The notes below the pieces were generated by a model. The model was not told where the DNA came from. It worked only from the letters and a program-made list of their open reading frames with translations, and did no database searches. From Bdellovibrionales bacterium (GTDB lineage Bacteria; Bdellovibrionota; Bdellovibrionia; Bdellovibrionales; UBA1609), in assembly GCA_050633065.1 (NCBI GenBank), contig JBOEFV010000027.1, positions 3,760-49,076 on the forward strand: 45,317 nt of DNA, written 5' to 3'. The position numbers and the translations under genes are program-made. Positions 1-18,507 of this stretch are shown here, in pieces (position 1 is the first letter of the stretch; every line of letters begins with the position of its first letter).

Positions 1-263
1 TCGATCGACTGATACAAAGCACACTTTTTAAATCTTTTGGAGCGAGAACAAACTTGCCTTATAAAGTGCCACGGTGCTGACGTCGTTTTTCGCAATCGCA
101 AAACGAGCTGCTTGTTTTGAGGAAAGAGCGAAAAGTACGTAGAGTCTAGAATTTCCAATACGGTCACTGCGCCACCACAACCCCGAAGATTTCAGCCCTA
201 GATTGCTGTTTAGAAGGTGCTGAGCGGCTACAATCAACCCGCAATTTGATGGGTTGAGGAACG

Positions 264-1139
264 ATGACACCGTCTAAAGGCCGTTTCATTCTGTTTGTAT
301 ATGCCGTCTTGTTTCCGGTATTGCTGGTCGTTCAGTCTCTACTTTGGAAGGATCATCCCTGGCTTTGGTTGCTCATGGGCTTGGGGCCGGGGGCGCATAG
401 CCTGCTTCAGCTAGGACTTATACAACACGAGTTAGGGCATCGGTACTACTTTAAGGGAGCCTACCTAAATCGCCTGGCCTACACGTTTCTTGCATTCTAT
501 TTGTGCTCCGATCCTCAATTCGATCGGATCGTTCACCCGACCCATCACAAGAACCTCCACACCTTCGAAGACCTCGAACTCTGGCCTCGGGGAAAACCTT
601 CGACAAAGTCTGCGGCCCGGCAACAATTGGTTCTTGAACTGATGTTCGGTAGGGCGGCTTGGGTGTTTGCGGCGCTCCCTGCCATTCGAGCCTCCAAAGA
701 ATATCGTTGGTGGAAAGAACTCGGCTTTCTCTTGAGTCTCCTTGGCTTTCATTTAATCTTGGCCCGCATCTGCGTTTCCTTGGGTGGTCCTTGGTACGCC
801 ATGTTCGCCACTATCTTTTTCAATCTTTGGGTGGCGTCGGTTCTCTCCCGCTATCTTCAGTTTATAGAGCATCTTGGGATTTTGGCTCCAGAGCTTCCGT
901 TGGCAGAGCGCAATCTTCTGTGTCGCAATGTGGGTCGAGATCACTGGATGGATCGGGTCTGGCACGTCATGACATCCTGTGACACAGAGAACCATCAGGA
1001 CCATCACACCCATCCGGAAGCACCGGTGCGGGTTCCATTTGGAGGCGCAAACAACACGGTGTTGCCCATCGTCTCTATTTGCGAGCTTCCTACTATTGTT
1101 CGAAGCTATTGGGATGATCCCTTCCGTGTGACCCAATAG
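264..1139 (+). CDS. Membrane fatty acid desaturase-family (di-iron) protein
   Basis: Three His boxes HELGH, HPTHH and HQDHHTHP with hydrophobic segments between them; GAGGA ribosome-binding site before the ATG. Confidence 0.85.
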   Translation: MTPSKGRFILFVYAVLFPVLLVVQSLLWKDHPWLWLLMGLGPGAHSLLQLGLIQHELGHRYYFKGAYLNRLAYTFLAFYLCSDPQFDRIVHPTHHKNLHTFEDLELWPRGKPSTKSAARQQLVLELMFGRAAWVFAALPAIRASKEYRWWKELGFLLSLLGFHLILARICVSLGGPWYAMFATIFFNLWVASVLSRYLQFIEHLGILAPELPLAERNLLCRNVGRDHWMDRVWHVMTSCDTENHQDHHTHPEAPVRVPFGGANNTVLPIVSICELPTIVRSYWDDPFRVTQ

Positions 1140-1239
1140 GACCCCCACTCGAATACACTGTGCGGAGAGCCTCAAGAAAATAGGGGCGCAACACTGGGGC
1201 GCTGCGGGACGTCTTACCTTAAGAACGGGAAATCATTTT

Positions 1240-2787
1240 ATGAAACCAAATCTTCTGTCCCCATCGATTTTGCTCGCGTCGTTTCTTATGGCCGCTTGGG
1301 GTGCCACCCTTGCCGCAGCTCCCGCCTTCTTTGCCTACCCCCAATCCAATGGCTCGGGCGGAACGAACTGGCTGCCGATGTACCCCCGCAAGGGAGGGGG
1401 AGAAATTGGGTTTCGCCAAGTCGGTCCGGCCATTGAGGCAGTCGATGAAGCCGGGGACGTTCTCTGGAGCAAAACCGTAGAGTCGGATTCCAAGAAAGTC
1501 TCGCTATCGGGCGGGATGGATCTGGATCAGGATGGCACCACCGATCTCGTTTTGATTTACCAAGAGCCCACGGGAGGATCGTGCGGGCCGGAGCTTTTGT
1601 ATCAGACCCAAATCGAGCTTCGCTCGGGAGAAACCGGACTGACCCTGTATGGGTCACAGGCTCAGGTCGATAAATGCTGGAGCTTCCCCACCCAAAGTTA
1701 TCCGACTCGCCAATGGACGAACCTCGCACCACTTTTCGGCAAGAAGGGTTTCTTGGCGCTTCAGCCCTATTACGCCACGCAGGGTTGGCTGTTTGATTTC
1801 TCGAAACGACCCCACACCCTCGGGGCCTATCTTTTTCCCTCGACTCAGCAATTCGACAACACCTATCCGGCGGCTCGAGTGGGCATAAAGGGGTGGAGCT
1901 TTCAGAAAGATGCCCACGTGGCCAATGGTCTTATCGTCGATCAGGGGGGCGAGTCTCGCCTGATCTTTTTCACCAGCAACCGAGTCGTAGATTACAAAAT
2001 GACGCCACTCGGGCCGAACCAACTGGTGCGCCAGCTTCGATATTATCCGGGTGGGCGAGGCGATTTATCGGGGCGAAACTATGGCCTGGTGGGGCAAGAT
2101 CCCCACCAACCCAATCTGGTCTATCTCATTGCGGGCTCCTCCGCGGCGACGGTGATGTCTGATCTTCAACAAGGTCGACGCGGCGCGACCGATGAGTGGG
2201 GGCAGATCGAGCGGCACATTACCCGTTATGACTGGGTCCGGGGCATTATCGAAGACCGCTTTTTCTCTAGCGCTCACGACAATAACTCCACCCATAAATG
2301 GCACAAGCGCATCGCCTACCCCGCCAATCCTTTTGTACGTCGTTCTCGGGGAACCCCGTCTCGATTGGCCTATAACGTCTATACCGCGGGCCTTTGGTCT
2401 TTACACATCAGTGACACGGGCGGCCTTCAAGATACCTACGCGTTGGCGGGGTTATTCCTTTGGGATATTCGCGACCTCGATGGCGACGGAATCGACGAGT
2501 GGATCGTTTCTCCCACTCCCCAGGGAGCCGCTTCCGCCACTCTAGAAGGCTATTTTCCAAAGAAAGAGACTCTCATTTACCGCTGGGACGAGGGGAAGAA
2601 AAACCTACAAACCGTCAGTCGTTTTCCCGGGCTGCCGAAGCTGCTCCCCCGATTTCGCTCTCCCGGGACATCCAATTCTTCGGGGCTTGCCTATCCGGTG
2701 AGCCTGGGACCTAGCGGCGGTTTGCTGCTGACCACACCTTCGGGTGCGGTCACCACCCACAACTGGAAAGCCACCCCAGAAGAGTAA
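1240..2787 (+). CDS. Secreted hypothetical protein with FG-GAP/VCBS-like calcium-binding motifs
   Basis: 515 aa ORF; N-terminal signal peptide; motifs DLDQDGTTDL and DLDGDGIDEW; beta-rich composition. Confidence 0.65.
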   Translation: MKPNLLSPSILLASFLMAAWGATLAAAPAFFAYPQSNGSGGTNWLPMYPRKGGGEIGFRQVGPAIEAVDEAGDVLWSKTVESDSKKVSLSGGMDLDQDGTTDLVLIYQEPTGGSCGPELLYQTQIELRSGETGLTLYGSQAQVDKCWSFPTQSYPTRQWTNLAPLFGKKGFLALQPYYATQGWLFDFSKRPHTLGAYLFPSTQQFDNTYPAARVGIKGWSFQKDAHVANGLIVDQGGESRLIFFTSNRVVDYKMTPLGPNQLVRQLRYYPGGRGDLSGRNYGLVGQDPHQPNLVYLIAGSSAATVMSDLQQGRRGATDEWGQIERHITRYDWVRGIIEDRFFSSAHDNNSTHKWHKRIAYPANPFVRRSRGTPSRLAYNVYTAGLWSLHISDTGGLQDTYALAGLFLWDIRDLDGDGIDEWIVSPTPQGAASATLEGYFPKKETLIYRWDEGKKNLQTVSRFPGLPKLLPRFRSPGTSNSSGLAYPVSLGPSGGLLLTTPSGAVTTHNWKATPEE

Positions 2788-2788
2788 T

Positions 2789-3637
2789 ATGCAGGCTGTG
2801 CCTGTCTCTTCCTCTCCGATTCGTCTTACCTCGCTTCAGTCAAGGGTGCACCACCCGGTGCACCGGGCCCTCGCATTGGCTTTAGAGCACCGGATTGGCG
2901 AGAGGGTCGAGCCCGTCCTGGAAGGCGACTGGCGGGTTGTCCGGGAGCAGCTTTTTGAGGGACACATTCAGCTGGGCACGCTTTGCAGCCCCTATTATCT
3001 AGCCGAACAAGAAAACGAGCACCCGCGGTTGGTCTGTTTGGCCGGGCTTGCGTCGGAGTCCTTTGAAAGCCTTGGAAAACCCCTCTATTGCTCGAAGCTG
3101 ATTGTGCTCGACTCCAGTTCTTTTCAGACCGTGGAAAGCCTCCGAGGCGCCCGAGTGGGCTATAACGAGCCTCATTCTTTATCGGGGCATCATTCGCTCC
3201 GTATTTTCTTTCAAGAACGCGGCACTCCTCACGATTTTTTCGGATCGGTTTTCAAGACAGGGGGACACCGTGCCTCTCTGCGGGCTTTAAGGGCTAAGAA
3301 GGTCGATGTGGTTGCCCTCGATTCGACGGTGGAGGACTATTTTCTGCGGTTCGATCCGAAACCCTTGGAAGAGCTTCGGACCCTGGCGACCATCGGGCCG
3401 TTTCCGCATCCTCCTTTGGTGGGCCACCGCTCGTTAGGAGAGGAGCGGCTCGCTCAAATTCGGTTGGCATTGCTTTCCTTGTGTGAAGACCAGGGGCTGA
3501 CCGAGCAGCTCAGACGATTTGGTTTCCACGGACTTTTGCCCTACCAGCCCGAGGATATGCAAGCCCTCGCAGAGCGGTTGAAAGGGTCCTCGAATGTGCG
3601 CCTAGCGCCAGAGCACCATTCTTTGGTGGGAATCTGA
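2789..3637 (+). CDS. PhnD/phosphonate-binding-protein-like protein, no signal peptide
   Basis: Motifs PLYCSKLIV, LRGARVGYNEPHSLSGH, TGGHRASL, DVVALDS, GPFPHPPLV typical of the PhnD-like family. Start placed at ATG 2789, one base after the upstream stop; the ORF track opens at 2744. Confidence 0.8.
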   Translation: MQAVPVSSSPIRLTSLQSRVHHPVHRALALALEHRIGERVEPVLEGDWRVVREQLFEGHIQLGTLCSPYYLAEQENEHPRLVCLAGLASESFESLGKPLYCSKLIVLDSSSFQTVESLRGARVGYNEPHSLSGHHSLRIFFQERGTPHDFFGSVFKTGGHRASLRALRAKKVDVVALDSTVEDYFLRFDPKPLEELRTLATIGPFPHPPLVGHRSLGEERLAQIRLALLSLCEDQGLTEQLRRFGFHGLLPYQPEDMQALAERLKGSSNVRLAPEHHSLVGI

Positions 3638-3694
3638 GGTACTCTAGGAGGCCTTCCGAGAGACCTCTTGGAAGAGACCACTGAGGACTGCTCG

Positions 3695-4570
3695 ATGATC
3701 GCTTCATCTCGTGCCCTTCTAGGCACCACCCTGGCTGTTTTTTGCCTAACATCTGCGGCGTTTGCCGAGGGATCCCATGCAGGACACTCCCACGGACCCG
3801 GCGACGGCCATGATCACGGTCATGACCACGGATCTCACAGCGTAGATCCACTGCAAGATATCTTAGCCAATGCACCCAAGCGCGAACTCACAGCGGAAGA
3901 AAAAATGATGCAAGCAGAACAAGAAATGATGGCGACCTATTTGATTGGCTATCAAGTCGGTCAGCAGCTCAAAGAGAACCTTCAGCATGTAAAGTTCGAA
4001 GACTTTGTAACCGGTCTTAGAGATGCGGCGGAAGGCAAAAAGCCTGCGGTCGACGCCGAAGAAGGCGCCAAAGCGATGGCAGTCTTTCATGAAATCATGA
4101 AAGAGCGTGCCGAAGAGATGGCGAAAGCTGCCTCTGCTGCCAACCTTAAAATCGGCGAAGCTTTCTACAAAGAGCAAGACGCACGCAAAGAAACCAAGAA
4201 AACCGAAAGCGGATTGCTCTACGAGGTCTTGACTGAGGGCAAAAAAGACGGCAAAAAACCCGGTCCCACCGACAAGGTTACGGTGAACTATGAGGGAACC
4301 CTCATCGACGGCACGGTCTTCGATAGCTCGTATGCCCGAGGAAAACCCACAAGCTTCCCTTTGAACCGAGTGATTTCCGGTTGGACCGAAGGCCTTCAGC
4401 TAATGAAGCCGGGTGCGACCTACCGATTTGTGATCCCACCGGCTTTGGCCTATGGCAAGCGAGGTGCCGGTGCGGATATCGGACCCGACGCCACTTTGAT
4501 CTTCAAAGTCGAATTGATCTCGATTGATGGCCCCGAAAAGCCACGAGCCGGAAGCTTCAGCGGAAAATAA
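3695..4570 (+). CDS. fkpA: FKBP-type peptidyl-prolyl isomerase (FkpA/Mip type) with signal peptide and His-rich N-terminus
   Basis: TESGLLYEVL, VTVNYEGTLIDGTVFDSSY, VISGWTEGLQLM, IPPALAYG; helical dimerisation domain (YLIGYQVG); GAGGA at 3683-3687 favours ATG 3695. Confidence 0.93.
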   Translation: MIASSRALLGTTLAVFCLTSAAFAEGSHAGHSHGPGDGHDHGHDHGSHSVDPLQDILANAPKRELTAEEKMMQAEQEMMATYLIGYQVGQQLKENLQHVKFEDFVTGLRDAAEGKKPAVDAEEGAKAMAVFHEIMKERAEEMAKAASAANLKIGEAFYKEQDARKETKKTESGLLYEVLTEGKKDGKKPGPTDKVTVNYEGTLIDGTVFDSSYARGKPTSFPLNRVISGWTEGLQLMKPGATYRFVIPPALAYGKRGAGADIGPDATLIFKVELISIDGPEKPRAGSFSGK

Positions 4571-4597
4571 TCTTAAAAAGAAGACTTCGAATATCTT

Positions 4598-4629
4598 AAA
4601 AACAAGGTCCATAGGGGCCTTGTTTTTTT
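4598..4629 (+). terminator. Rho-independent terminator after fkpA
   Basis: AAAAACAAGGTCC-ATAG-GGGCCTTGTTTTT stem-loop followed by a T run. Confidence 0.75.
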
Positions 4630-4736
4630 GTGTTCCGCTCTCCGAGGCGCTCTGTTTGCGTTCTTTTAGAGAACAAACATACCCATGAGGTCGTCTCTCG
4701 CGGTACGTTCCGCACCTAACGAAAGGGCGTTTTTCC

Positions 4737-7364
4737 ATGCGCCATCCATGGCTGGTCTCTTCAATTCTGGGTCTCGTTGCCTCCGCCGCACTTTTCGCTG
4801 GTGGGGAAGCCCAAGGCAATCTTCTCAAAGAAGCGGCAATGGCTCGCTCCAAGAAGATTTCGAAAATTCACTACGATCTCAATCTCGACTTTGATCTCGG
4901 TGCCAAGCGCAAAGAGGAATACACCGGTAAGGTGATCGTCAGTTTTCACCTGACGGGAGACCCAAGCGGGCTCTTTCTCGATTTCAACGGCAAGCTTTCT
5001 TCAGGAAAGCCGGTGCGAAGCCTGGCAGTCAACGGCAAAACCGTTTCCAAAATCCGCCACGAAGCAGGCCAATTGCACCTCCCGGCAAAATTGCTCCAAA
5101 AAGGCCCCAACACTGTGAAGGTGGAATACACCTGTAACTACGACAACGACGGGGCGGGCCTTCACAAGATCGAAGACCCTGCAGACGGGCGCACCTATCT
5201 TTACACCCATTTTGAGCCTTTCGATGCCAACCGCATGTTCCCGTGTTTCGATCAGCCCGATTTGAAAGCGCGCTATACGCTCGAAGTCGATGCTCGTGAC
5301 GACTGGACGGTCGTGTCGGGCGGTGCCCTTGAGGCCAAGAAGCCTGGCAACGTCTTTCGTTTTCGGCAGACAGAAACCTACAGCCCGTACATCTTTGCTT
5401 TGGTCGCCGGTCCGTTTCGGGTTTGGGAAGACAAGAAAGCTCGCATCCCCAGTCACCTTTTGGTCACAGAGTCGATGGCAAAATACGCCGACCCCGAAGA
5501 GATCTTCGAAGTCACTCGCCAAGGTTTTGATTTCTTCGAGAAATATTTCGAAGTGGACTATCCCTTCGGAAAGTACGATCAGATCTTTGTTCCCCAGTTC
5601 AACTGGGGTGCGATGGAAAATGTCGGTTGCGTGATTTTCAACGACCGAATGATCTTCCGCAAGAAAGCGACCGAGCTAGACCGAGAACGCCGCGCCAACA
5701 CCATCCTCCACGAAATGGCACACATGTGGTTCGGCGATATCGTGACCATGAAATGGTGGAACGACCTGTGGCTCAACGAAAGTTTTGCGACGTATATGGC
5801 CCACCTTGGGTTGACCAAAGCCACCCGCTTTAAAGGGGCCTGGGAAACCTTTGCGAGTCGAATTAAAGGCTGGGCATATTGGCAAGATCAGTTGCCAACC
5901 ACCCACCCCATCGAAACAGCAGTACCCGACACGAAGACTACGTTCACCAACTTCGACGGCATCACCTACGGCAAGGGAGCCTCTGTATTGAAACAGCTCG
6001 CCTTCTTTGTCGGAGAAGACGCCTTCCAAAAGGGTGTGGCCAACTATCTGAAAAAGCATCAATTCGGAAATGCCACCCGAGCTGATTTCATTCGCTCGAT
6101 CGGCAAAGCAGCCAACGAAGATCTCACCGAGTGGACCAAGCTGTGGCTGCAATCTTCCGGAACCAATACGATTACTCCTAAGATCAAGACTCGAGACGGC
6201 AAAATTAAGTCGTTTGTCCTTGAACAGTCGAAAGGCAACGGAGCCTCTGTGTTTCGACCGCATCGTCTCAAGGTCGGGCTTTATGATCGCAAAGGCAAAA
6301 AGCTGGTTCTGCGAGAGGCCAAGACCGTTCGGGTCGAGGGAAAATACACGCGGGTGAAAGCCTATGAAGGCAAAGCCGCCCCGGACTTCGTATTTGCAAA
6401 CTACGGAGATCACGCATTCGCCAAGACCTTCTTAGATCCGATAAGTCTTGAGTACGCCAAAAAGGAACTCGAAAGCCTTCCTGACTCGATGCTTCGAGCG
6501 GCTGTTTGGCAAACAGCTTGGTTCATGGTCCGAGACCTTGCCACTTTGCCAACCGAATACCTAGATCTCTTTCTTGCGAAGGCCTCTACAGAGAAAGATC
6601 CCAAGGTACTTTCCGGCATTCTTGGCAATGTGAGAACCGCTTTGAATCGGTATCTTCCCACTCGAAAGAAATACGCCTATTCGGACAAGGTTCGAAAATT
6701 GGCTTGGTCCCAAGCACGGAAAGTAAAGGCTGGTTCTGATCTTCAGAAAGCGTGGTTCGATATGGGAGCCGCTCTCACCAGCAATAAAGTGCACGCTCGG
6801 TACGTTTCGAACTTGCTTACCGGCAAGGCCAAAATTAAAGGCGTGACCTTGGATCAACCGACTCGCTGGAACCTGCTGGCCCGACTGTGTTCTGTGAACT
6901 ATCGCGGCTCCCAGAAAATGCTGGACGAGGAAAAGCAACGGGACAAAAGCCAAAAAGGTGCCGCAGCCGCATTTCGAGCAGAAGCTTCGTTTCCGGATAA
7001 GGCTCATAAAGAAGCCGCCTGGAAACGTTTCGTAGGCGATACGAAGACTCCGCTGGATCACTTAAGAGAAGGCATGCGAGGCTTCTGGTGGCCCCACCAA
7101 AGTCGATTGCTGAAGCCTTATGCGAAGCGATTTTACGGTGCCCTCGAAGGGATCGCCTCCAAGCGAGGCGGCTACTACGTCGAAGCCTTCGTGGAGAATC
7201 TGTTTCCGAGTGTGATTATCACCAAGGCCAACCAAAAAGCGGCTGCCGCTTTGATTCGGGCAAACGATCCGGCGCTTTCGAGTGTGCTTCGTTCTGTAAA
7301 AGAGTCCAATTCAGAATTAGAACGAGCGCTTGCGATTCGAGCTTCGTTTAAGAAAAAGAACTAG
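4737..7364 (+). CDS. pepN: Aminopeptidase N (M1 family), with signal peptide, copy 1
   Basis: GAMEN, HEMAH...WWNDLWLNESFA zinc motif, NFDGITYGKGAS, FPCFDQPDLKA; hydrophobic N-terminus. Confidence 0.96.
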   Translation: MRHPWLVSSILGLVASAALFAGGEAQGNLLKEAAMARSKKISKIHYDLNLDFDLGAKRKEEYTGKVIVSFHLTGDPSGLFLDFNGKLSSGKPVRSLAVNGKTVSKIRHEAGQLHLPAKLLQKGPNTVKVEYTCNYDNDGAGLHKIEDPADGRTYLYTHFEPFDANRMFPCFDQPDLKARYTLEVDARDDWTVVSGGALEAKKPGNVFRFRQTETYSPYIFALVAGPFRVWEDKKARIPSHLLVTESMAKYADPEEIFEVTRQGFDFFEKYFEVDYPFGKYDQIFVPQFNWGAMENVGCVIFNDRMIFRKKATELDRERRANTILHEMAHMWFGDIVTMKWWNDLWLNESFATYMAHLGLTKATRFKGAWETFASRIKGWAYWQDQLPTTHPIETAVPDTKTTFTNFDGITYGKGASVLKQLAFFVGEDAFQKGVANYLKKHQFGNATRADFIRSIGKAANEDLTEWTKLWLQSSGTNTITPKIKTRDGKIKSFVLEQSKGNGASVFRPHRLKVGLYDRKGKKLVLREAKTVRVEGKYTRVKAYEGKAAPDFVFANYGDHAFAKTFLDPISLEYAKKELESLPDSMLRAAVWQTAWFMVRDLATLPTEYLDLFLAKASTEKDPKVLSGILGNVRTALNRYLPTRKKYAYSDKVRKLAWSQARKVKAGSDLQKAWFDMGAALTSNKVHARYVSNLLTGKAKIKGVTLDQPTRWNLLARLCSVNYRGSQKMLDEEKQRDKSQKGAAAAFRAEASFPDKAHKEAAWKRFVGDTKTPLDHLREGMRGFWWPHQSRLLKPYAKRFYGALEGIASKRGGYYVEAFVENLFPSVIITKANQKAAAALIRANDPALSSVLRSVKESNSELERALAIRASFKKKN

Positions 7365-7374
7365 GGGATAGTAG

Positions 7375-10005
7375 ATGTTTTTATCTCAAAAACGGGGTCT
7401 TAAGACCCCTTGGCTTGCGGCCGGAATCCTATTCGGCTTAGCGAATTTAAGCCTTGCGGGCTCGAACTTGAGTCACGAATTGGCTTTGTCTCGAAGCGCC
7501 GTGGTTTCGGACGTTCGGTACAAACTGGGATTGACTCTTCGAGCCAAAAAACCGGATTACACCGGGACCAATGCAATCTATTTTCGACTGAAGAAGGTTC
7601 CGAAAAAACTCCATCTCGATTTTCAGGGTGAAGAGATTCGAAGCCTGAAGGTGAACGGTAAGTCCGTAGCCGGTGCGAAAATCGAAGAGGGAAAAGTTTG
7701 GCTGCCGGTTGCCCACCTGAAAGCGGGAAAGAACCACGTCGAGCTTGCGTTTCGAAACGACTATGACACGGACGGATCGGGTCTTCACAAGATTAAAGAC
7801 TCGGCGGACGGCAAAGAATATGTGTACACCGACTTTGAGCCCTACGACGCCAATCGGATGTTTCCGAGTTTCGATCAGCCCGACCTAAAGGCCTCCTACA
7901 GGCTCACCGTGAAGGCACCGCCGACTTGGAAAGTCGTCGGAAACGGACGAGAGTACGCCACAGTCGGCGACGGCGATTTGGTACGCCACGAGTTTACTCG
8001 TACTGAAAAATTCTCGACCTACATCGCGGCGATGTGTGCCGGACCCTTTGCGGTCTGGACCGATACCCGGGCTCGCATCCCGAGTCGCATTTTCGCGGTG
8101 CAGTCGATGGCCGAACACGTTGATTCGAACAGGATCTTCAAAATCACTCGCCAAGGATTTGATTTCTTCGAAGAATACTTCGATATCAAATACCCGTTTC
8201 ATAAGTATGATCAGATCTTTCTTCCTCAGTTCAACTCGGGGGCAATGGAAAATGTAGGAGCCGTGACCTTTAACGGAAATTACATTTATCGGCATAAAGC
8301 CACCCGAGCCGAGCTGCAGGGACGTTCCAATACCATCCTTCACGAGATGGCTCACATGTGGTTTGGCGATATCGTAACCATGGAATGGTGGAACGACCTT
8401 TGGTTAAACGAGAGCTTCGCCACCTACATGGCGAACTTGGCTCTTGTGGAAGCGACCGAGTACACCGAGTCTTGGCGCCTTTTCACTAAGGGCACTAAAA
8501 CTTGGGCCTACTGGCAAGATCAGCTTCCAACGACCCACCCGATTGAGACCTTGGTTCCCGATACAGATACGACGTTTACCAACTTTGATGGCATCACCTA
8601 CGGAAAAGGAGCCTCCTCTTTAAAGCAACTCGTGTTCTTAATTGGAGAAGAGAACTTTAAACTAGGCCTGGCTGAGTACTTTAAAACTTATGCTACAAAA
8701 AATACAAAACGAGAAGACTTTATTAAAACTCTTCAAAACCACACAAGTGAAAATTTAAAAACCTGGACCAATCAGTGGCTTCAAACAAAAGGCCTTAACA
8801 CAATAACAACAAAATTTACATGCATTGATAACAAGCTAAAAGATATTTCGTTTCTTCAAGGCTACACTAGCGGAGATAAAATTCTTAGGACTCATAAGGT
8901 AGAGTTCGCTATGTGGCTTGAGGACTCCTCCTTAAAGCCTGAAGAAGTTTTTACTTTAAGAATTAGTGGAGAAGAAACTAATTGGACTCCTTTAAAAGAG
9001 GTAGCTTGCCCAAAAGCAGTTTTTCCTAACTGGAATGACCATGGCTATATCAAGGTTTCTTTAGATGAGGCCTCTTCAGGCTTCTTACTAAAAAATATTC
9101 ATAGATTTGAATCAAACCTCTTTAAGTCACAGCTTTGGACAATCTTAAACAGCAAACTTAAATTTGGAGAGATCGCTCCTGAAGATGTCATCGCCTTACT
9201 AAAAACGGAAATCCCTAAAGAGAACAATTCTGATGTTTTAAACTCTATTCTAAAACTCCTCTACCCTGACCACCCTATATTTGAACTCTACACTGATAAA
9301 AAGAGAGCTGTAAAAGAGCGAAAAAGCTTTGCAAAAACTTTAAAGTCTCGCATTCTAGAAACAACAGATACGGATTTAAAGAAAATTCTTTTTAGAAAAT
9401 GGGTTTACAGCTCTTATGAAGATAATCCTTTTTCAATATATAAATGCTTAACTAAGTGCTCTTTTGATCAAGGCTTTGTAATTGATCTTGATACGAAATG
9501 GTTTATTGCAAATAAATTATCAGCAGTAAGATTTAAAAAGAATTCTTATGTTAAAGAGCTTTCAAAAAAAGATCCTTCAAGACGTGGGGTTTTAAACAAG
9601 CTTGCCTCAAAAGTAAGTTATGCAAAAAATAAAGAGCCTTGGCTCTCTAAAGCCCTAGATGAAACCTCAGGACTGTCTCTTAAAGAACGCATTACTATTT
9701 TAAAGAATATTGTTCCCTTTACGCAAAGAGAAAAGTACTTCACTTTTAAGCAAAATAGCTTTTTTGAAAAAATAGACCAGATTTCTCTCCTTCCTCTTAG
9801 AGTACAAAGAGCTTTTGCTGAAAATTTCGCGCCCTTGTTCTGCGGAGAATTTTCTAACAATATTCCTATTACAGAAGAGCAAGTAAATGGGGCCCCCTGG
9901 AACTATGGTGTTCAAAAACAACTGCTAAAAAAGTTAGATATTGAAAAAAGGTGTTTAAAAATTAAAGGCGCCTCTAATTTAATAAAAAAGAAAGGTTCAA
10001 ATTAA
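7375..10005 (+). CDS. pepN: Aminopeptidase N (M1 family), copy 2; hybrid ORF with GC-rich 5' half and AT-rich 3' half
   Basis: Same M1 motifs as copy 1; abrupt change in base composition and codon usage at about 8580-8640 with the frame kept open. Confidence 0.9.
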   Translation: MFLSQKRGLKTPWLAAGILFGLANLSLAGSNLSHELALSRSAVVSDVRYKLGLTLRAKKPDYTGTNAIYFRLKKVPKKLHLDFQGEEIRSLKVNGKSVAGAKIEEGKVWLPVAHLKAGKNHVELAFRNDYDTDGSGLHKIKDSADGKEYVYTDFEPYDANRMFPSFDQPDLKASYRLTVKAPPTWKVVGNGREYATVGDGDLVRHEFTRTEKFSTYIAAMCAGPFAVWTDTRARIPSRIFAVQSMAEHVDSNRIFKITRQGFDFFEEYFDIKYPFHKYDQIFLPQFNSGAMENVGAVTFNGNYIYRHKATRAELQGRSNTILHEMAHMWFGDIVTMEWWNDLWLNESFATYMANLALVEATEYTESWRLFTKGTKTWAYWQDQLPTTHPIETLVPDTDTTFTNFDGITYGKGASSLKQLVFLIGEENFKLGLAEYFKTYATKNTKREDFIKTLQNHTSENLKTWTNQWLQTKGLNTITTKFTCIDNKLKDISFLQGYTSGDKILRTHKVEFAMWLEDSSLKPEEVFTLRISGEETNWTPLKEVACPKAVFPNWNDHGYIKVSLDEASSGFLLKNIHRFESNLFKSQLWTILNSKLKFGEIAPEDVIALLKTEIPKENNSDVLNSILKLLYPDHPIFELYTDKKRAVKERKSFAKTLKSRILETTDTDLKKILFRKWVYSSYEDNPFSIYKCLTKCSFDQGFVIDLDTKWFIANKLSAVRFKKNSYVKELSKKDPSRRGVLNKLASKVSYAKNKEPWLSKALDETSGLSLKERITILKNIVPFTQREKYFTFKQNSFFEKIDQISLLPLRVQRAFAENFAPLFCGEFSNNIPITEEQVNGAPWNYGVQKQLLKKLDIEKRCLKIKGASNLIKKKGSN
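8580..8640. other. Compositional junction between a GC-rich and an AT-rich segment
   Basis: Hand-counted GC per 60-nt line: 8461 = 30/60, 8521 = 32/60, 8581 = 26/60, 8641 = 21/60, 8701 = 15/60; the sequence stays AT-rich to the window end. Confidence 0.92.
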
Positions 10006-10640
10006 TGGAAAAACTAATTATTTTTGATTGCGATGGAGTTTTAGTTGATAGCGAATCTATTACAAACCAAGTTCTAGTTGATTATGTAAATGAATTTGGT
10101 GTGGGCATCACTTTAGAGAGAGCTTTAGAACTGTTTCAAGGAGGCACCATTGCCGACTGGATTCACTATGTGAAAGTTGAGCATGATATTGAACTTCCAC
10201 AGGAGTTTGTTTCAAACTTTAGGCACAAAATGAAGGTCGCTTTTGAAAAAGAGCTTGAACCTGTTTCTGGAGTAGAAAAGCTTATAGAGTCTTTAAACTG
10301 TAAGATTTGTATTGCCTCAAACGGCCCTATGGAAAAAATGGAAACCACTTTAAGGGTCACTAAACTTAATAGGTACTTTGGCGAGAACATCTATTCTGCT
10401 TACCAAATTAACAAATTTAAACCAGATCCATCTCTGTTTTTACATGCCGCTAAAGAAATGGGGATTGAACCTCAGCACTGCACCGTAATTGAGGATAGCC
10501 CTAGAGGAGCTCAAGCTGCTGTAGCCGCAGGCATGACCGTTTATGGCTATGATGTTTATGGAAAAACCCAGGCTTTAATCGATAATGGAGCCCTCCTCTT
10601 TACCAAAATGACGGATTTAATAGATAGAATAGGAGTATGA
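10005..10640 (+). CDS. HAD-superfamily hydrolase (subfamily IA)
   Basis: IIFDCDGVLVDS, ASN, KPDP, VIEDS motifs; TAATG overlap with the pepN stop. Confidence 0.93.
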   Translation: MEKLIIFDCDGVLVDSESITNQVLVDYVNEFGVGITLERALELFQGGTIADWIHYVKVEHDIELPQEFVSNFRHKMKVAFEKELEPVSGVEKLIESLNCKICIASNGPMEKMETTLRVTKLNRYFGENIYSAYQINKFKPDPSLFLHAAKEMGIEPQHCTVIEDSPRGAQAAVAAGMTVYGYDVYGKTQALIDNGALLFTKMTDLIDRIGV

Positions 10641-11947
10641 TTTTAAAGCCCTTTTTCTTCTCTATTTTATTACTCACTGTGAGCTCTATAAGTGGCGCTG
10701 CTACAGTTAAAAAGAAAGTTAAAAAAGGACCCGATTTTGATTTTGGTTTAAACTTAACGAATGAACATTTTGTAGAACTTGATAGTCAAAACACTTATGA
10801 CGCTGAACTCTACTTTAAGTATCGCCATAAGTTTAACAAACACCTTGGTCTTATCCTCTCTCCACATATTGATCTAAACAGGTATAAAAACTCAAAAGAT
10901 AGATCATACCTTCTAAGAACTGAAAACTCCGGGCTTTATGCAAACTACAATAAATTTTCTTTAACAGCTGGGTTTTTATCTCACTCTTTTGGCTTGTCTC
11001 AGCTCTTTAGCCCTTTAAATTTTGTAGATACAGCCTCATACTGGTCCCCTTTCAACGCTCAAAAAATTTCAAGTCCTACACTTAGGTTCACCTATAAGAC
11101 AAAGGCTGTCAGGCTCTTTACTTCCTATATGCCAAAAAGATTTGAAAATCTTTACCCTGGAAACAACACTCCGTTTATCCCTACTAAAATACCCGGAAAT
11201 TTAAAGTCCGAGGGGGACACTTATCTTTTTCCTGAAACGGCTAATTACAGTATCGAAGACAGTGAAACCATTGATGATGCTCTAAGTGGAAACTTCGTAG
11301 GTGGTATAAGACTTAAGCTTGATCCTTTTTTAACACAGCTTCTATACTACAGAGGAGTCGATACAGACCCTTCTGTAGATTTAAATCTTAACCTAACAGC
11401 CCTTGACCTCACCCCAGGACAAAGAGTTTTTCAAATTGATAATCCTATTGGAGTGATTCCTATATATCAGAAAGTTGAAAGACTTGGTTTAAGCGTAAGG
11501 TACACACTTCCTTTTAAATGGCGCCTCCTTTATGAAGGAAACATTTCTAAAGGTGATGAGAATGTAAGACAAGGCTATAGAGAAAGCCAGACACATACTG
11601 CAGGGCTTGAATGGGGTGTTCCTATTGGCAACACTCTCCTCCTTGGTGTCCTTCAGGCTTATAAATCTAAAAACAGCAGTGACTCTTCTCTTGGCCTAGT
11701 CTCCCCTTTTAGAGAAGCTTATCTCTTTGGAGCTAATTGGAAGTATAAAAAATATGATTTAAGTGGTGGTTATTTTGTAAGTAAATCTTTAAAGTTTTCT
11801 TTATACAATTTTAAAGTTGGTTATAAGATCAATAAAAACTTTAAGTTTAACTTATCTGGAAATATTCTTGAAGGTGAGCTCATAGAGCTTCTTAGTGGAC
11901 TTCTTGATAGGGATACTGTTTCAGCCCAAATACAATACAATTACTAA
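10637..11947 (+). CDS. Putative outer-membrane beta-barrel protein
   Basis: Signal peptide, alternating amphipathic strands, C-terminal VSAQIQYNY resembling a BAM beta-signal; ATGA overlap with the HAD gene. Confidence 0.65.
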   Translation: MILKPFFFSILLLTVSSISGAATVKKKVKKGPDFDFGLNLTNEHFVELDSQNTYDAELYFKYRHKFNKHLGLILSPHIDLNRYKNSKDRSYLLRTENSGLYANYNKFSLTAGFLSHSFGLSQLFSPLNFVDTASYWSPFNAQKISSPTLRFTYKTKAVRLFTSYMPKRFENLYPGNNTPFIPTKIPGNLKSEGDTYLFPETANYSIEDSETIDDALSGNFVGGIRLKLDPFLTQLLYYRGVDTDPSVDLNLNLTALDLTPGQRVFQIDNPIGVIPIYQKVERLGLSVRYTLPFKWRLLYEGNISKGDENVRQGYRESQTHTAGLEWGVPIGNTLLLGVLQAYKSKNSSDSSLGLVSPFREAYLFGANWKYKKYDLSGGYFVSKSLKFSLYNFKVGYKINKNFKFNLSGNILEGELIELLSGLLDRDTVSAQIQYNY

Positions 11948-11959
11948 TTATTTTGTTAT

Positions 11960-13456
11960 TTACTTTACTGCTTTCACACTTGCTAAAGATCTTGTCTCTT
12001 CTTTTTCTTTAAGCTCAACATTTAAAAAGAATGCTTTTTGAGTTTCTTTCATAGAAACAGCTTGAATATAATCTGAAATTCCAAGGTCTTTCCATGTATA
12101 GTTAAACTCCATTCCCTTAAAAGCATTCTCAACTCTTGGCATAATCATGCTCATCCAAGGCTTTCCCATAGGCTTAGATTTTCTCCACTTAGTCATTAAA
12201 GGACTCCATGAACGCTTAGCACTCACATCAGGATTTTTAACAACAAAAGAAAAACCTTCATTATTTAAATCTAAGTCTATCGAACCTTTTAAACCTCCAT
12301 AGAAATTCATATATGGATACTCAGTTCCCCTACTATTTAAAAAACTCATTTCTATATCGTGACGACCATTAAGATTGTAAGAGAATCCACTTCCCCTTGT
12401 CTTTACAAGATGAACCTTTGTATCAGTTATTGCTATATCTGTTTTAAAGTTTGAGTCTTTTCTAAAGTTTAAAAGGTCACTCCATACAAAAAACTGGATA
12501 AATCGACTGTTAAATAAAAAGTCTACCCCTGGAATATCGGCTCTATACATTTGAAAAGAAAGGCTGCTTTCCTTTATAATATCAGGAACTAGCTTAGAGA
12601 AAAACTCTTTAGGAAGAAGTATTCCCGCCTCATCAGTAAATGATTCAAAAGCTCCTTTTTCTAAAAGAAGTTTGTAGTCTTTCTTATTGTTTTCAGCTTT
12701 AACAGACCCTTTTACCTGTAAATAATTTTCAAAAAATTCAATATCTTCAACTATTAATGAAACCTCTGTTCCGAGAAGGTCAAATTTAAGATCATTCTCT
12801 TTAATTCTTTCCCAGTTTTCATTAAGGAATTCCTGTCCATAAGAAATAGCTTGTTCAAAAAGCAGCTCTTTTCCCTCAGCCGAATTTATCCATTCTTTAA
12901 TCTCATCTTTAAAAATTAGATCAACACCTTTTGGCCCTGTACAGCTTGAAAAGTCGATACTTATATCGCCGCCATCTAGATCAAAAACTCCTTTATCTTT
13001 ATTTAAATTTAACGTTTTCCCATCAAAGGCTATAGATGTGCTCATATGCCCTTTCCAGTTCTCTAATATAATTGGAAGACTTTCACATTTTATAATTGTT
13101 TTCACTCTTGCGCGAACACCAGATCTTTTAACAACTGTGATGTTTTCATAATAAAAGCCTTCTAAAAGAAGTGTTAATTTTTTAAAGTTAATTTCAGCCG
13201 ATGCTCTATCAAAACCATCTAACTCAAAGTTTATTAATGAATCTAGAGAAAGGCTCACTCTTCTTTTTTGAATCTCATCAAAAAAGCCACCTCCCCCAAA
13301 TTCAATTTCTTCATCTTCTACAGTAAAATCTCCTGAAAGCTCTTTTAAAAGAGTGTTAGTTTTATCAATCGATATAGAAACGCCAATTTCTGAAGAAAGG
13401 GCCCCGAATGTATTGACTGAGAAAGCTAAAAATAAAAGAAATAAAAGTTTTTGCAT
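11960..13456 (-). CDS. Secreted hypothetical protein, possibly TULIP/BPI-like fold
   Basis: 498 aa, signal peptide, long beta strands alternating with long helices, one Cys pair; the fold is an inference. Confidence 0.55.
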   Translation of the reverse strand: MQKLLFLLFLAFSVNTFGALSSEIGVSISIDKTNTLLKELSGDFTVEDEEIEFGGGGFFDEIQKRRVSLSLDSLINFELDGFDRASAEINFKKLTLLLEGFYYENITVVKRSGVRARVKTIIKCESLPIILENWKGHMSTSIAFDGKTLNLNKDKGVFDLDGGDISIDFSSCTGPKGVDLIFKDEIKEWINSAEGKELLFEQAISYGQEFLNENWERIKENDLKFDLLGTEVSLIVEDIEFFENYLQVKGSVKAENNKKDYKLLLEKGAFESFTDEAGILLPKEFFSKLVPDIIKESSLSFQMYRADIPGVDFLFNSRFIQFFVWSDLLNFRKDSNFKTDIAITDTKVHLVKTRGSGFSYNLNGRHDIEMSFLNSRGTEYPYMNFYGGLKGSIDLDLNNEGFSFVVKNPDVSAKRSWSPLMTKWRKSKPMGKPWMSMIMPRVENAFKGMEFNYTWKDLGISDYIQAVSMKETQKAFFLNVELKEKEETRSLASVKAVK

Positions 13457-13734
13457 GAAGAGCCTATCGTAAGCTCTCTTTATGGATTCAAGTCCCAGAC
13501 CAAGGTTTGTATGACAAACCCTTCGACCCCATTAAAATAGGCAAAAAGGCCTTATTCTTTGAGAAGATTGTTTATCTTTTTTACAGATTGATAAGGAATC
13601 TAGATTTTAAGAAATGGCTAGCTTGTCCCTGAGAAAACCTCTCATTTCCCTCAAAACCTTGAACGCTTTTTTGCATAGCTTTAGTATTTAAATTCTAAAT
13701 GATAACAAACTGAAAACAGAAATGGAGATCACCT

Positions 13735-14133
13735 ATGAAATCTACTAGAAGAGACCTTCTTAAAAAGGCCGCTTTAGGCGGTACAGCACTAGCAGCAGTA
13801 AACTTAACAGCCGCTTGTTCTAAGAAAGAAACAACATCTAGCGATGCTTCAGCTCCTGCTGAAAAAGAAGCTACTACAGCTACACCTTATGTAGAAACCA
13901 GCAACACAACGGCTCAAGCACTTGGTTATACTGAAGATGCTGCCAGTCTTGAAGAGGGTGCTAGACCTGATAAAGGTGCAACAAAAGGTGCTGATCAAAC
14001 ATGTGTAAACTGCCAGTTTTATACAGCTGACAGCTCTACTGATGGAGTTGGTGGTAAATGTAGCCTATTCCCAGGAAAGCTTGTTAAAGGTGCTGGCTGG
14101 TGCCGCAGCTGGAGCTTAAAAGCTCAAGTATAA
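13735..14133 (+). CDS. High-potential iron-sulfur protein (HiPIP), Tat-exported lipoprotein
   Basis: Tat motif STRRDLLK, lipobox LTAAC, AQALGY motif, four Cys in CVNCQFY...CSLFPGKLV...GWC; GGAG RBS. Confidence 0.92.
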   Translation: MKSTRRDLLKKAALGGTALAAVNLTAACSKKETTSSDASAPAEKEATTATPYVETSNTTAQALGYTEDAASLEEGARPDKGATKGADQTCVNCQFYTADSSTDGVGGKCSLFPGKLVKGAGWCRSWSLKAQV

Positions 14134-14213
14134 GGCTTTAAAGCTTAATTATTCCACATTTACCTATATAAACTACCCATACCAATCTAGACCCGATAGG
14201 ATTCCGGGTTGGT

Positions 14214-14897
14214 ATGGATCTAAAAAAGCTTATTAAATCTTTTCTTTTTTCAAAGCATTTCCTAGTAGTTTTTCTACTTATATTCACACAACTTATCATC
14301 ATTAGCCTTCTACAAATTTTTGTTAAAATGAACGCTTACAATGACAGTGACCAGCTTAGGTTTGCATTGATGACTTTCATGGTCTCTCTTCTTTTTGGAG
14401 GGTTTATAAAGATTTATTCGTTTTTCCATTTCGGAGCTATATTAAACCTTCATAAAGAGACGTCTTTAATGACGTTTGCAGCACTACATTTTAGTGATTG
14501 GATTGTTACTGAAGTCAGAGCCCAAGTTCGAGTTTTGCTAAGGTTATTCCTTCTTATAATTCCAGGGGTTATTGAGGCTGTGAGATTAAGCTTCGCACTT
14601 CCAAGTGTTTTCCTTAATCCAAACATGAAAGACCCTCACTATGACCCTATTGAGGATTCAAGAGATAAACTCCCTTTAAAAAGTCCCTTTTTGATCCCTT
14701 TATTCTTCTTTACCATGGCTTTACCAATCATTCTTTTTGTAGCTACAAACTCTGAGCGAGTTTTATTTGAAACTCCAACAAACATAATACTTGGAGTTAT
14801 GGCTTCAGCGATTCAAGCTACAGGTGTTGTTATTAGCTTTGCATACGTCTTAAATCTTTATTCTAATATTTTTACAACTGATCAAGAAACACTATAA
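14214..14897 (+). CDS. Hypothetical multi-pass membrane protein
   Basis: 227 aa with several hydrophobic segments; LFLLIIPG motif common in integral membrane proteins. Confidence 0.7.
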   Translation: MDLKKLIKSFLFSKHFLVVFLLIFTQLIIISLLQIFVKMNAYNDSDQLRFALMTFMVSLLFGGFIKIYSFFHFGAILNLHKETSLMTFAALHFSDWIVTEVRAQVRVLLRLFLLIIPGVIEAVRLSFALPSVFLNPNMKDPHYDPIEDSRDKLPLKSPFLIPLFFFTMALPIILFVATNSERVLFETPTNIILGVMASAIQATGVVISFAYVLNLYSNIFTTDQETL

Positions 14898-14929
14898 AAC
14901 CAAAACTCAAAACATTAAGGAGAGACATA

Positions 14930-15979
14930 ATGGGAGCTTTTTTAACTAGACATGATATTGCTGATAGACCTGAGGGGCTTACGTTTGATGACGTACTTGT
15001 TGTGCCTTGTAAATCTGAAGTAAAATCAAGAAAAGATCCTGATCTTAGTTCTCAAATCACAAAAAAAATCACACGTGAGACACCTATCATCAGTTCTAAT
15101 ATGGACACTGTTACTGAAGGTGATATGGCAAAAGCCATGTCTGATCTTGGAGGGGTTGGTATTCTTCATAGATTTATAGATGTTGAACAACAGATTCAAG
15201 AACTTGAACTAGTTAAAAAATCAAAATCACCTTTACTTGCAGCAAGTGTTGGTATTGGAGATAAAGGTAAAGAAAGGGCAAAAGCTTTATTTGATGCCGG
15301 TGTTGAACTTATCACAATTGATATTGCTCACGGGCACAGCTCAACTATGATGGATTTAACTTCTTGGATTAAAAAAGAATTTCCTAGTCTTGAAGTTATT
15401 GCAGGAAATGTTGCAACGCCTGAAGCTGTTAAAGACCTTGCAAACGCTGGAGCTGACGCCATTAAAGTCGGAATTGGCCCTGGTTCTATGTGCACCACTA
15501 GAATCATAACAGGTTGTGGTCTGCCACAACTCACTGCTATTGCTATGTGTAAGCTTGAAGCTGAAAAGCACAATGTTCCTATTATTGCAGATGGAGGAAT
15601 CAAAACTTCAGGTGATATCTTTAAAGCATTTTGTGCTGGAGCAGATTCTGTAATGCTTGGATCTTTACTTGCCGGAACTTTAGAAAGTCCTGGTGAAGTT
15701 CGTCATGGTAAAAAACTTTATCGAGGTATGGCTTCTCGCTCAGCTCAAGATTCTTGGAGAGGCGGGGTTGCTAAAGGAATGGCTCCTGAGGGTGAGTCTC
15801 ATATGATTAACATCAAAGGTCATGTTGAGAGTGTTGTTATGGAGCTTACAGGAGGAGTAAGATCTGGAATGAGTTATATTAATGCTATCCAATTCTCAGA
15901 TATTAAAGACAACGCAAGATTTATTAAAATGAGTACTTCAGGAATTAGAGAATCTGTTGCGCACGGGCTTTCTCTTTAA
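14930..15979 (+). CDS. IMP dehydrogenase/GMP reductase family protein lacking CBS domains
   Basis: LTFDDVL, SNMDTVT, DIAHGHS, AGNVAT, KVGIGPGSMCTTR, IIADGGI, YRGMAS; AAGGAG RBS. Confidence 0.93.
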   Translation: MGAFLTRHDIADRPEGLTFDDVLVVPCKSEVKSRKDPDLSSQITKKITRETPIISSNMDTVTEGDMAKAMSDLGGVGILHRFIDVEQQIQELELVKKSKSPLLAASVGIGDKGKERAKALFDAGVELITIDIAHGHSSTMMDLTSWIKKEFPSLEVIAGNVATPEAVKDLANAGADAIKVGIGPGSMCTTRIITGCGLPQLTAIAMCKLEAEKHNVPIIADGGIKTSGDIFKAFCAGADSVMLGSLLAGTLESPGEVRHGKKLYRGMASRSAQDSWRGGVAKGMAPEGESHMINIKGHVESVVMELTGGVRSGMSYINAIQFSDIKDNARFIKMSTSGIRESVAHGLSL

Positions 15980-15981
15980 TT

Positions 15982-16782: not shown

Positions 16783-16886
16783 AATCGCGACATACAGCAC
16801 CACCTATTTATACCCAGACTTGTTTTAAAGACTTAATTTCTGTAAAAATTATGGTTCAACAACATATATAACAAGGAGACTCAATT

Positions 16887-17417: not shown

Positions 17418-17441
17418 TTTTTAAAATTAGTTTATATTATT

Positions 17442-17475
17442 AAAAGCCTCGTTTATTCTTGCGAGGCTTTTTTTT
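17442..17475 (+). terminator. Rho-independent terminator after ahpC
   Basis: AAAAGCCTCG / CGAGGCTTTT inverted repeat with a T8 tail. Confidence 0.85.
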
Positions 17476-17668: not shown

Positions 17669-17674
17669 ACGTCA

Positions 17675-18500: not shown

Positions 18501-18507
18501 TTAGGCT

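Follow-up and report, generated by a model that had tools for sequence, protein, structure and literature searches.

To understand whether a single aminopeptidase gene can join the DNA of two very different bacteria, we analysed a window of 45,317 nucleotides from contig C27 of a Bdellovibrio-like draft genome, in which one open reading frame of the M1 aminopeptidase N family (PepN) is GC-rich in its 5' half and AT-rich in its 3' half. Two answers can be given: a mosaic enzyme made by recombination in a living cell, or two genes of two organisms joined in an assembly. The features on which the argument turns are listed here, with positions counted from the first base of the window unless a contig is named.

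Window 1..8580, continuing leftwards to the end of C27 (12.36 kb in total): GC-rich foreign block, delimited by GC, tetranucleotide use and CpG; its genes inside the window, by Pfam, are an M56-like peptidase, a PhnD-like binding protein, an FKBP isomerase, pepN1 and the 5' part of pepN2
The 3.76 kb to the left of the window: a CusB/HlyD-type protein and an outer-membrane efflux protein
4737..7364, plus strand: pepN1, an intact, GC-rich M1 aminopeptidase N of 875 amino acids (PF17900, PF01433 and PF11838), attributed to the foreign organism
7375..10005, plus strand: hybrid open reading frame of 876 amino acids, open throughout
7375..8580, plus strand: 5' part of the hybrid, residues 1-402, putative pepN2 of a foreign GC-rich organism (identity and N-domain tree)
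8581..8616, plus strand: crossover interval, 36 nt encoding NFDGITYGKGAS (junction alignment)
8617..10005, plus strand: 3' part of the hybrid, residues 415-876, probable native pepN of the AT-rich genome (identity and tree)
10005..10640, plus strand: native HAD-family hydrolase gene, its start overlapping the pepN stop
C94:2-679, minus strand: AT-rich M1 N-terminus, running off the end of contig C94

An earlier note on this DNA had placed a fall in GC near 8580-8640, and the fall is real. In 120-nt windows, GC was 0.517 at 8500-8619, 0.433 at 8560-8679, 0.317 at 8620-8739 and 0.308 at 8680-8799, that is, a drop from about 0.52 to about 0.32 over some 100 nt (8560-8740) with no gradual change seen. 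The accompanying claim, that codon usage and CG-dinucleotide frequency change at the same point, was borne out as well: GC3 in the hybrid frame is 0.60 before and 0.29 after the maximum-likelihood change point, with codons 409-436 (8600-8683) as the best positions for the change, and the observed/expected ratio of CpG is 1.06 in the GC-rich block versus 0.44 in the remainder of C27. On the scale of 1-kb windows, GC lies at 0.50-0.58 over 1-8000 and at 0.33-0.41 from 9001 to the end of the window, and GC is 0.515 in the whole block (C27:1-12360) but 0.364 in C27 outside it. At one point, the contig changes abruptly in base composition, codon use and oligonucleotide signature.

The host draft genome comprises 2.32 Mb in 99 contigs with 38% GC (completeness of the bin 96.9%, contamination 1.35%), and holds no other long GC-rich stretch. 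Across the whole assembly (8941 windows of 1 kb) mean GC was 0.379 with an sd of 0.024, and windows with GC >0.47 fell in four places: the block, two short contigs (C97 and C86) and a single borderline position on C7. By this threshold the block extends over C27:1251-12500, GC being already 0.44-0.50 from base 1. The tetranucleotide profiles of the two sides, a comparison that the earlier note had proposed, made the block the most deviant among 148 chunks of 12 kb, its correlation being 0.36 where the genome averages 0.98 (z 11.5). Another chunk with deviant tetranucleotide use, C1:24001-36000, was considered as a second foreign block and rejected, since its GC is normal and it is made up of two giant open reading frames. 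Judged in whole-genome context, the foreign side of C27 is the GC-rich one. This corrects the earlier reading: the odd stretch measures 12.36 kb and extends to the end of the contig, and the AT-rich side is the ordinary one.

The block sits at the terminus of C27. Two of its open reading frames gave no Pfam match, and one of these, of 515 amino acids, may be a beta-propeller protein according to a Protein Atlas lead, the leads coming from many phyla and pointing to no taxon. The earlier remark that no mobility gene was in view agrees with the Pfam matches of the block, which include no integrase or transposase family; no tRNA was found in 1-20000 and no flanking repeats around the block, whose far border lies beyond the contig end. 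A mobility or integration signature, as expected of a real mosaic gene or a genomic island, was thus not found in these searches.

The two halves of the hybrid were then compared separately with their relatives. Residues 1-405 are 70-71% identical to the protein P0003 (71% by BLASTP, 70% by local alignment) and the N half is 66% identical to P0004 by both methods, while identity to 12 relatives of the AT-rich clade is only 45-52%; over residues 1-214, the same 12 relatives give a flat 36-45%. Residues 416-876 behave in the opposite way, with 67% identity to P0121, 43-57% to 11 further proteins (45-57% by local alignment), 55-57% to the same-genus orthologues and only 26-28% to the GC-type clade. 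The C halves of P0003 and P0004 are 26-27% identical to that of the hybrid, although these two proteins share 60% identity with each other over their full length. Separate trees of the halves, also proposed in the earlier note, clustered the N part with P0003 and P0004, in the GC-type clade, and placed the C half as sister to P0121 (SH-aLRT 99).

The same discordance is seen within single comparisons. In the same-genus genomes G003 and G001, identity is 55-56% to the C half but only 46% to the N half, normally the better conserved. Among natural pairs (n=464), subtracting C-half from N-domain identity gives values between -6 and +22 points, and the hybrid falls outside this range in 21 of 31 comparisons. 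The two sides thus differ in phylogenetic affinity: P0003 and P0004 are the relatives of the N half, P0121 and the same-genus orthologues those of the C half. On these alignments and trees we assign the halves to different M1 clades. In pepN1, by contrast with the hybrid, both halves lie in the GC-type clade. The 5' half of the hybrid had been said to resemble this neighbouring gene closely, which proved too strong: pepN1 is a paralogue with 55-58% amino acid identity in the N half and 27% in the C half. A scan of species-representative genomes with the N half was swamped by the HEMAHMWF motif; its best match had 55% identity (a Planctomycetia MAG), and the scan yielded neither a close relative nor a taxon for the source of the GC-rich DNA.

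As the earlier note had stated, the frame stays open across the switch, giving one frame of 876 amino acids, and the switch lies on a conserved M1 motif. The last residues specific to the GC clade (TTFT) end at 8580 and the first residue specific to the AT clade (the second S of GASS) starts at 8617, which puts the apparent join somewhere within 8581..8616. All 12 residues encoded there are common to the hybrid and to four of the six other rows of the junction alignment, with both lineages represented. The DNA of this motif is well conserved across lineages, with, for example, 20 identical nucleotides in G022; outside the 36-nt stretch the DNA is only about 60-70% alike. The junction is seamless, with no N at or near it, the closest N on C27 being 36.7 kb away. 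Downstream, the coupling of the 3' half to the AT-rich HAD gene was found as described before, the stop of pepN and the start of the HAD gene overlapping in TAATG (10003-10007).

Taken as a protein, the hybrid is unremarkable. Like pepN1, it carries PF17900, PF01433 and PF11838, and it has the three-domain architecture and zinc-binding motifs of M1 aminopeptidase N; GAMEN and HEMAH-X18-E can be read in the translations, and we take them to be the M1 aminopeptidase motifs known by these names. Both source genes would be ordinary full three-domain members of the family, and nothing odd remains once each half is assigned to its own gene.

A native counterpart of the displaced 5' part is present elsewhere in the assembly, at C94:2-679. 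This fragment shares 74% identity with P0121, 58-60% with the orthologues of G003 and G001 and 34% with the hybrid, and it is sister to P0121 (SH-aLRT 99), the same place in the tree as the C half of the hybrid. Over 31 proteins, the identity profile of the fragment follows that of the hybrid C half (Spearman 0.91), whereas the hybrid's own N domain gives -0.44 against its C half; when the fragment is paired with the hybrid C half, none of the 31 comparisons leaves the natural range. C94 is 5.7 kb long and has native tetranucleotide composition (r 0.96). Searches with tblastn and blastn revealed no second copy of its three tested genes (at least 263 amino acids each) or of its DNA elsewhere in the assembly. 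In each of the three same-genus genomes that carry such a pepN, this type is present in one copy; the genome analysed here (G000), by contrast, would hold pepN1, the hybrid and the C94 fragment.

No contig of the assembly contained the middle of the native pepN, about 0.6 kb. K-mers common to the end of C94 and the GC-rich pepN genes are at most 14 nt long, so that no visible graph branch with the GC-rich organism accounts for the break of C94, whose terminal 150 nt share stretches of at most 14-15 nt with the rest of the assembly. Neither on C94 nor in the window did any gene next to pepN have a match in 19.5-kb stretches around pepN in the three same-genus genomes that carry it; synteny therefore neither links C94 to the window nor opposes the link.

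A further GC-rich contig bears on the origin of the block. C97 is 1.9 kb long with a GC of 0.535 and a CpG observed/expected ratio of 1.05, and its tetranucleotide use correlates at 0.82 with the block and at 0.20 with the genome. It bears a second sdhA/sdhB pair, whose identity to the genome's native copy on C36 is 52-61%. Rfam searches of C97, C86 and C96 gave no RNA family, so that their raised GC does not come from rRNA. A block-like contig that duplicates the housekeeping genes sdhAB is best explained by the presence of an organism like the source of the block in the sample itself.

Independent copies of the junction were sought in other data. In a collection of 5.8 billion proteins the hybrid forms a cluster of one member from one contig, a weak point, as the parents are unsampled there too. 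When metagenomes were scanned for relatives of the C half, 71 matches to the pattern were obtained, of which none proved to be a relative, and a degenerate pattern of the GC-type peptide immediately to the left of the junction matched nothing. Short protein fragments provided a single match, at 64% identity, and none from the same population. Intact parent genes were not found elsewhere, the nearest relatives being 71% and 67% identical. The junction thus did not recur in these searches, which says little, as the parent genes were also unseen.

From composition, the separate ancestries of the two halves and the stranded 5' end of the native gene, we conclude that C27 is very probably an interspecies chimeric contig and the hybrid aminopeptidase an assembly artefact rather than biology. 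All the indirect tests run favour this reading, which is strongly supported, short of proof. The earlier note had itself favoured an assembly chimera, formed through a conserved sequence common to both sides, and the discordant clades, the terminal and unique block, the orphan 5' end on C94 and the sdhAB duplicate on C97 all point the same way. The sample would have held two organisms, A, the AT-rich Bdellovibrio-like bacterium of the bin (38% GC), and B, a GC-rich one (about 52% GC) carrying a tandem pair of pepN genes. The pepN genes of A and B would both encode NFDGITYGKGAS with near-identical DNA, and we infer that the assembler made the join through a shared k-mer, its graph crossing from pepN2 of B to pepN of A; a crossing at a stretch common to both genes keeps the reading frame automatically. 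The binner would then have placed the entire contig in the bin of A. The real pepN of A would be split, its first ~226 codons ending C94 and its last ~460 codons forming 8617-10005 of the window, with the conserved catalytic core between them, some 190-200 codons or about 0.6 kb, absent from the assembly, and the 876-amino-acid protein would be present in no cell.

A real event would require that A took at least 12 kb from B, with recombination inside the conserved pepN motif producing the in-frame mosaic and the 5' remnant on C94 lying beyond the insert. The open frame, the apparently intact M1 domains of both halves, with the three Pfam domains all present, and the seamless join are what such an event would leave, and the sequence beyond the C94 fragment and before the first base of C27 lies outside the data, so that C94 could continue into GC-rich DNA. 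However, the possible identity spans only ~36 nt in surroundings about 60-70% alike, the composition changes within roughly 100 nt, no integrase or transposase family, tRNA or flanking repeat marks an island, and C97 duplicates sdhAB with block-like composition; the single-member cluster counts on the same side, as a weak point. We therefore regard a real event as very unlikely. The same low probability attaches to its biological corollary, that a Bdellovibrio-like predator integrated at least 12 kb from a much GC-richer bacterium through a ~36-nt motif and so gained a functional mosaic M1 aminopeptidase with no mobility gene; if true, this would be a micro-homology-anchored capture of foreign, perhaps prey, DNA.

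Instead, C27 could be correct and C94 the intruder, from a second related strain or species, which would make its pepN 5' end uninformative on this genome. C94 is indeed short and ends inside a gene; nevertheless, a second strain would be expected to yield a second copy of its genes or DNA, its composition is native, its nearest relative and identity ranking match those of the hybrid C half, and the discordant ancestry of the hybrid halves would stay unexplained. We consider this extremely improbable. That the join arose in a later step (scaffolding, gap filling, contig extension or assembly merging) and not in primary graph traversal is unlikely: the many short N runs in the assembly indicate some post-processing, but none lies at or near the junction. 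Such an error would be a variant of the artefact explanation, and the practical conclusion would not change.

Natural mosaic genes do arise by homologous recombination, for example those for penicillin-binding proteins in Streptococcus and Neisseria; homology-facilitated illegitimate recombination belongs to the same comparison. Such genes form where close relatives share long, nearly identical stretches, and many isolates carry one and the same mosaic. The hybrid is likewise in frame with segments of different ancestry; unlike them, its sides differ by 15 GC points, share ~36 nt of possible identity, and the mosaic has been seen once.

A second comparison is with interspecies chimeric contigs in MAGs. 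In bioRxiv 10.64898/2026.10.15.759294, such contigs likewise combine foreign and native DNA joined at a conserved region, occur in bins of good marker-based quality and add genes alien to the organism. Junctions are called in that work from read alignments against known references, whereas the call for C27 rests on composition, half phylogeny and an orphan native gene end; such an orphan end can expose a chimeric join in the absence of reads.

The value of this finding is practical only, the artefact being something to remove, and C27 should be split at about 8600 of the window, its GC-rich stretch and C97 taken out of the genome, and the record of the 876-amino-acid protein marked as an artefact. 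A species-representative genome carries ~12.4 kb, and at least one contig of 1.9 kb, of DNA apparently from another organism, and a protein of 876 amino acids that probably does not exist is stored in a searched protein collection. Given the support for a chimera, the earlier warning against gene-neighbourhood arguments across 8600 stands: operon, neighbourhood or horizontal-transfer arguments across this point would be wrong, and the Bdellovibrio-like organism should not be assumed to own the efflux, FKBP and tandem pepN genes.

Across the window, in 1-kb steps, GC content lies between 0.50 and 0.58 over positions 1-8000 and between 0.33 and 0.41 from 9001 to the end. In 120-nt windows it falls from 0.517 (8500-8619) through 0.433 (8560-8679) to 0.317 (8620-8739). 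This step is a real feature of the sequence, and it is crossed by one open ORF of 876 aa (P0001), the hybrid. Within this ORF third-position GC drops from 0.60 left of the step to 0.29 beyond it, with the best change points at codons 409-436. CpG observed/expected is 1.06 in the GC-rich part of the contig against 0.44 in its remainder, and the stop codon of the ORF overlaps the ATG of the HAD hydrolase gene (TAATG). The GC drop near 8600, the change in codon usage and CpG, the uninterrupted frame and the coupling to the HAD gene, all described in the earlier note, were thus confirmed. The features of the window are the following:

4737-7364: intact GC-rich pepN (pepN1)
7375-10005: hybrid ORF, its GC-rich 5' part being pepN2
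8581-8616: stretch in which the hybrid changes lineage
10637-11947: ORF without Pfam match, near the HiPIP gene
11960-13456, minus strand: ORF without Pfam match, near the HiPIP gene
13735-14133: gene for a HiPIP-domain (high-potential iron-sulfur) protein of 132 aa, on the AT-rich, native side
14214-14897: ORF without Pfam match, near the HiPIP gene

It is the AT-rich side that belongs to the native genome. The assembly (G000) comprises 99 contigs and 2.32 Mb, nearly all contigs having 0.33-0.40 GC (mean 0.379, SD 0.024, 8941 windows of 1 kb). With a cut-off of >0.47 in 1-kb windows, GC-rich DNA was found at four places: C27:1251-12500 on the contig that holds the window at 3760-49076, contigs C97 (1.9 kb) and C86 (1.3 kb), and one marginal spot on C7. 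Since C27 has a GC of 0.44-0.59 from base 1 to approximately 12,360 and falls thereafter, the GC-rich DNA is a 12.36-kb block forming one contig end. When tetranucleotide profiles were compared, as the earlier note had proposed, the block was the most deviant of 148 12-kb chunks, with r 0.36 to the genome mean, where the others average 0.98 (z 11.5). Only one other chunk, second in rank, deviates; its GC is normal, and it is taken up by a pair of neighbouring giant minus-strand ORFs of C1 (C1:23000-36732; minimum lengths 2796 aa and 1780 aa, both running to the stretch ends); no tandem DNA repeats were found in this region.

The two halves of the hybrid have different relatives. In sliding windows along the alignment, pepN1 is closest as far as residue 390 or so, with 54-73% in the catalytic region, and the same-genus orthologues are not favoured, while from about residue 420 identity is 47-70% to those of the same-genus genomes G003 and G001, against 8-43% to pepN1. 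Among 31 genomes (G000 and 30 relatives), the C half reaches 55-56% with G003/G001, 45% with G002, also of the genus, and 24-32% with other genera; the N half has 46-49% with G001/G002/G003, equalled by other families (G007, 50%; G022, 49%). A search of a collection of 5.8 billion proteins gave P0003 (71%) and P0004 (66%), which are 60% identical to each other over full length, as nearest to residues 1-405; their C halves share only 26-27% with that of the hybrid. For residues 416-876 the nearest was P0121 (67%), followed by 11 others at 43-57% in the search and 45-57% in our own alignment, and to these 12 proteins residues 1-214 of the hybrid show a flat 36-45%. Separate trees, another check that the note had put forward, place the C half beside P0121 (SH-aLRT 99) within a 13-row clade (100), and the N domain with P0003 (82) in the other clade (86); in the alignment columns from which the two trees were built, the pepN of the same-family genome G007 equals P0110. 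Across 464 natural protein pairs, N-domain minus C-half identity spans -6 to +22 points, a range outside which the hybrid falls in 21 of 31 comparisons.

A third M1 N-terminus was detected by tblastn of the halves against the genome, running off the end of C94, a 5.7-kb contig of 0.333 GC (C94:2-541, minus strand; longest alignment 2-670, open frame 2-679). The frame begins with a start codon and a signal-like N-terminus and breaks off, at the equivalent of hybrid residue 214, only because the contig ends. The fragment shares 74% identity with the N-terminus of P0121, 58-60% with the G003/G001 orthologues (P0123, P0124) and 44.5-47% with that of G002 (P0132), against 31-37% with the GC-type clade and 34% with the hybrid. 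The N-domain tree makes it the sister of P0121 (SH-aLRT 99), the position that the hybrid C half takes in the C-half tree. Measured against 31 proteins, the identities of the fragment correlate with those of the C half (Spearman 0.91), whereas the hybrid's own N domain gives -0.44, and when fragment and C half are paired none of the 31 comparisons leaves the natural range. C94 is very unlikely to be a redundant piece of a second strain, since its composition is native (r 0.96) and neither tblastn of three of its genes (at least 263 aa) nor blastn of its DNA found a second copy elsewhere in the assembly. G001, G002 and G003 each carry one native-type pepN, plus a distant M1 paralogue resembling that on C22. 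Read most simply, a single native pepN has its two ends in the C94 fragment and in window 8617-10005; some 190-200 codons of its conserved catalytic core would have been left unassembled, and no trace of these codons was found in the assembly. In the real chromosome, C94 in reverse complement probably adjoins window 8617 on the left, apart from a gap of about 0.6 kb. The genes beside pepN, on C94 as well as in the window, had no match in the 19.5-kb stretches around pepN of the three same-genus genomes that possess it. Upstream of the pepN 5' end, C94 carries genes for an RNase-like protein (beta-CASP/metallo-beta-lactamase) and for an AAA_28 protein.

The alignment shows residues characteristic of the GC-type clade up to window 8580 (…DTDTTFT); those of the AT-type clade set in at 8617 with the second S of GASS, after which comes LKQLVFLIGEENFKLGL. 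The 36 nt in between encode NFDGITYGKGAS, whose 12 residues are all common to the hybrid and four of the six other alignment rows, from both lineages (G003 ends in A; G001 has A for the first G and also ends in A); the switch does lie on a conserved M1 motif, as had been noticed. The DNA is strongly conserved as well, with 20 consecutive nt common to G022 and the hybrid and only a few third-position differences in G001 and G002. A k-mer common to both genomes is therefore plausible here, and we infer that the assembler joined them through it; between the C94 end and the GC-rich pepN genes of the block, none longer than 14 nt was found.

Contig C97 (1-1913; GC 0.535, CpG observed/expected 1.05) carries the end of sdhA and the whole of sdhB, 52% and 61% identical to the genome's own copy on C36. 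Its tetranucleotide r is 0.82 to the block and 0.20 to the genome, and none of 30 random 1.9-kb native pieces was closer to the block than to the genome. C97 is probably a contaminant that stems from the GC-rich organism behind the block or from one like it. A duplicated housekeeping operon with block composition is best explained by such an organism being present in the sample and leaking into the bin, which is all that a chimera requires. Two further contigs are unusual. C86 (1-1080; GC 0.48, CpG observed/expected 1.29) resembles neither genome nor block, and the end of its open frame encodes a Peptidase_S74 domain (chaperone of endosialidase) like those of phage tail fibres; it is possibly phage or another contaminant. 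C96 (1-1772, 1.8 kb; GC 0.456) is intermediate (r 0.30 to block, 0.52 to genome) and carries fragments of a beta-lactamase-family protein and a Trp-halogenase-like FAD protein.

Taken with these data, the chimeric assembly favoured by the earlier note is supported by the discordant halves, the native 5' end on C94 and the block composition of C97, and we regard the 876-aa hybrid as very probably an assembly artefact. Were the insertion real, the C94 fragment would run on into GC-rich DNA and the enzyme would be a mosaic anchored on micro-homology; this seems to us very improbable, as it needs recombination anchored on about 36 nt, the two DNAs being some 60-70% alike elsewhere, without any mobility gene, and leaves C97 unexplained. 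The block encodes a CusB/HlyD-type and an outer-membrane efflux protein, an M56-like peptidase, a PhnD-like binding protein, an FKBP isomerase, pepN1 and two ORFs without Pfam match; no integrase or transposase family is among its Pfam hits, which bears out the remark that no mobility gene was in view. Window 1-20000 holds no tRNA, and no repeats flank the block, the direct repeats found being the paralogous pepN genes (71-85% identical). Two metagenome scans returned no relatives of the C half or of the GC-type peptide left of the junction, and no short fragments of the same population were found in the protein collection.

An artefact of this kind has precedent: a preprint (bioRxiv 10.64898/2026.10.15.759294) describes interspecies chimeric contigs as frequent in bins accepted by marker-based quality control, names repeats and conserved regions as the cause, and reports that, in CAMI data, 69.4% of the near-complete MAGs made with MEGAHIT and 20.5% of those made with metaSPAdes contain at least one such contig. 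The good ratings of G000 (96.9% complete, 1.35% contaminated) fit that description. The error has already reached a downstream resource: the searched protein collection lists the hybrid as a cluster of one member from one contig.

In relatives of the GC-rich source, proteins related to pepN2 and pepN1 occur in pairs: P0004 and P0008 each come from 95,313-base contigs and P0006 and P0007 from 72,585-base contigs, each pair apparently sharing one contig; the tandem pepN1-pepN2 therefore looks native to that lineage, which suggests that a tandem M1 aminopeptidase pair is a conserved arrangement there. The Bdellovibrionales genome should be curated by cutting C27 within window 8581-8616 and removing the GC-rich block together with C97.
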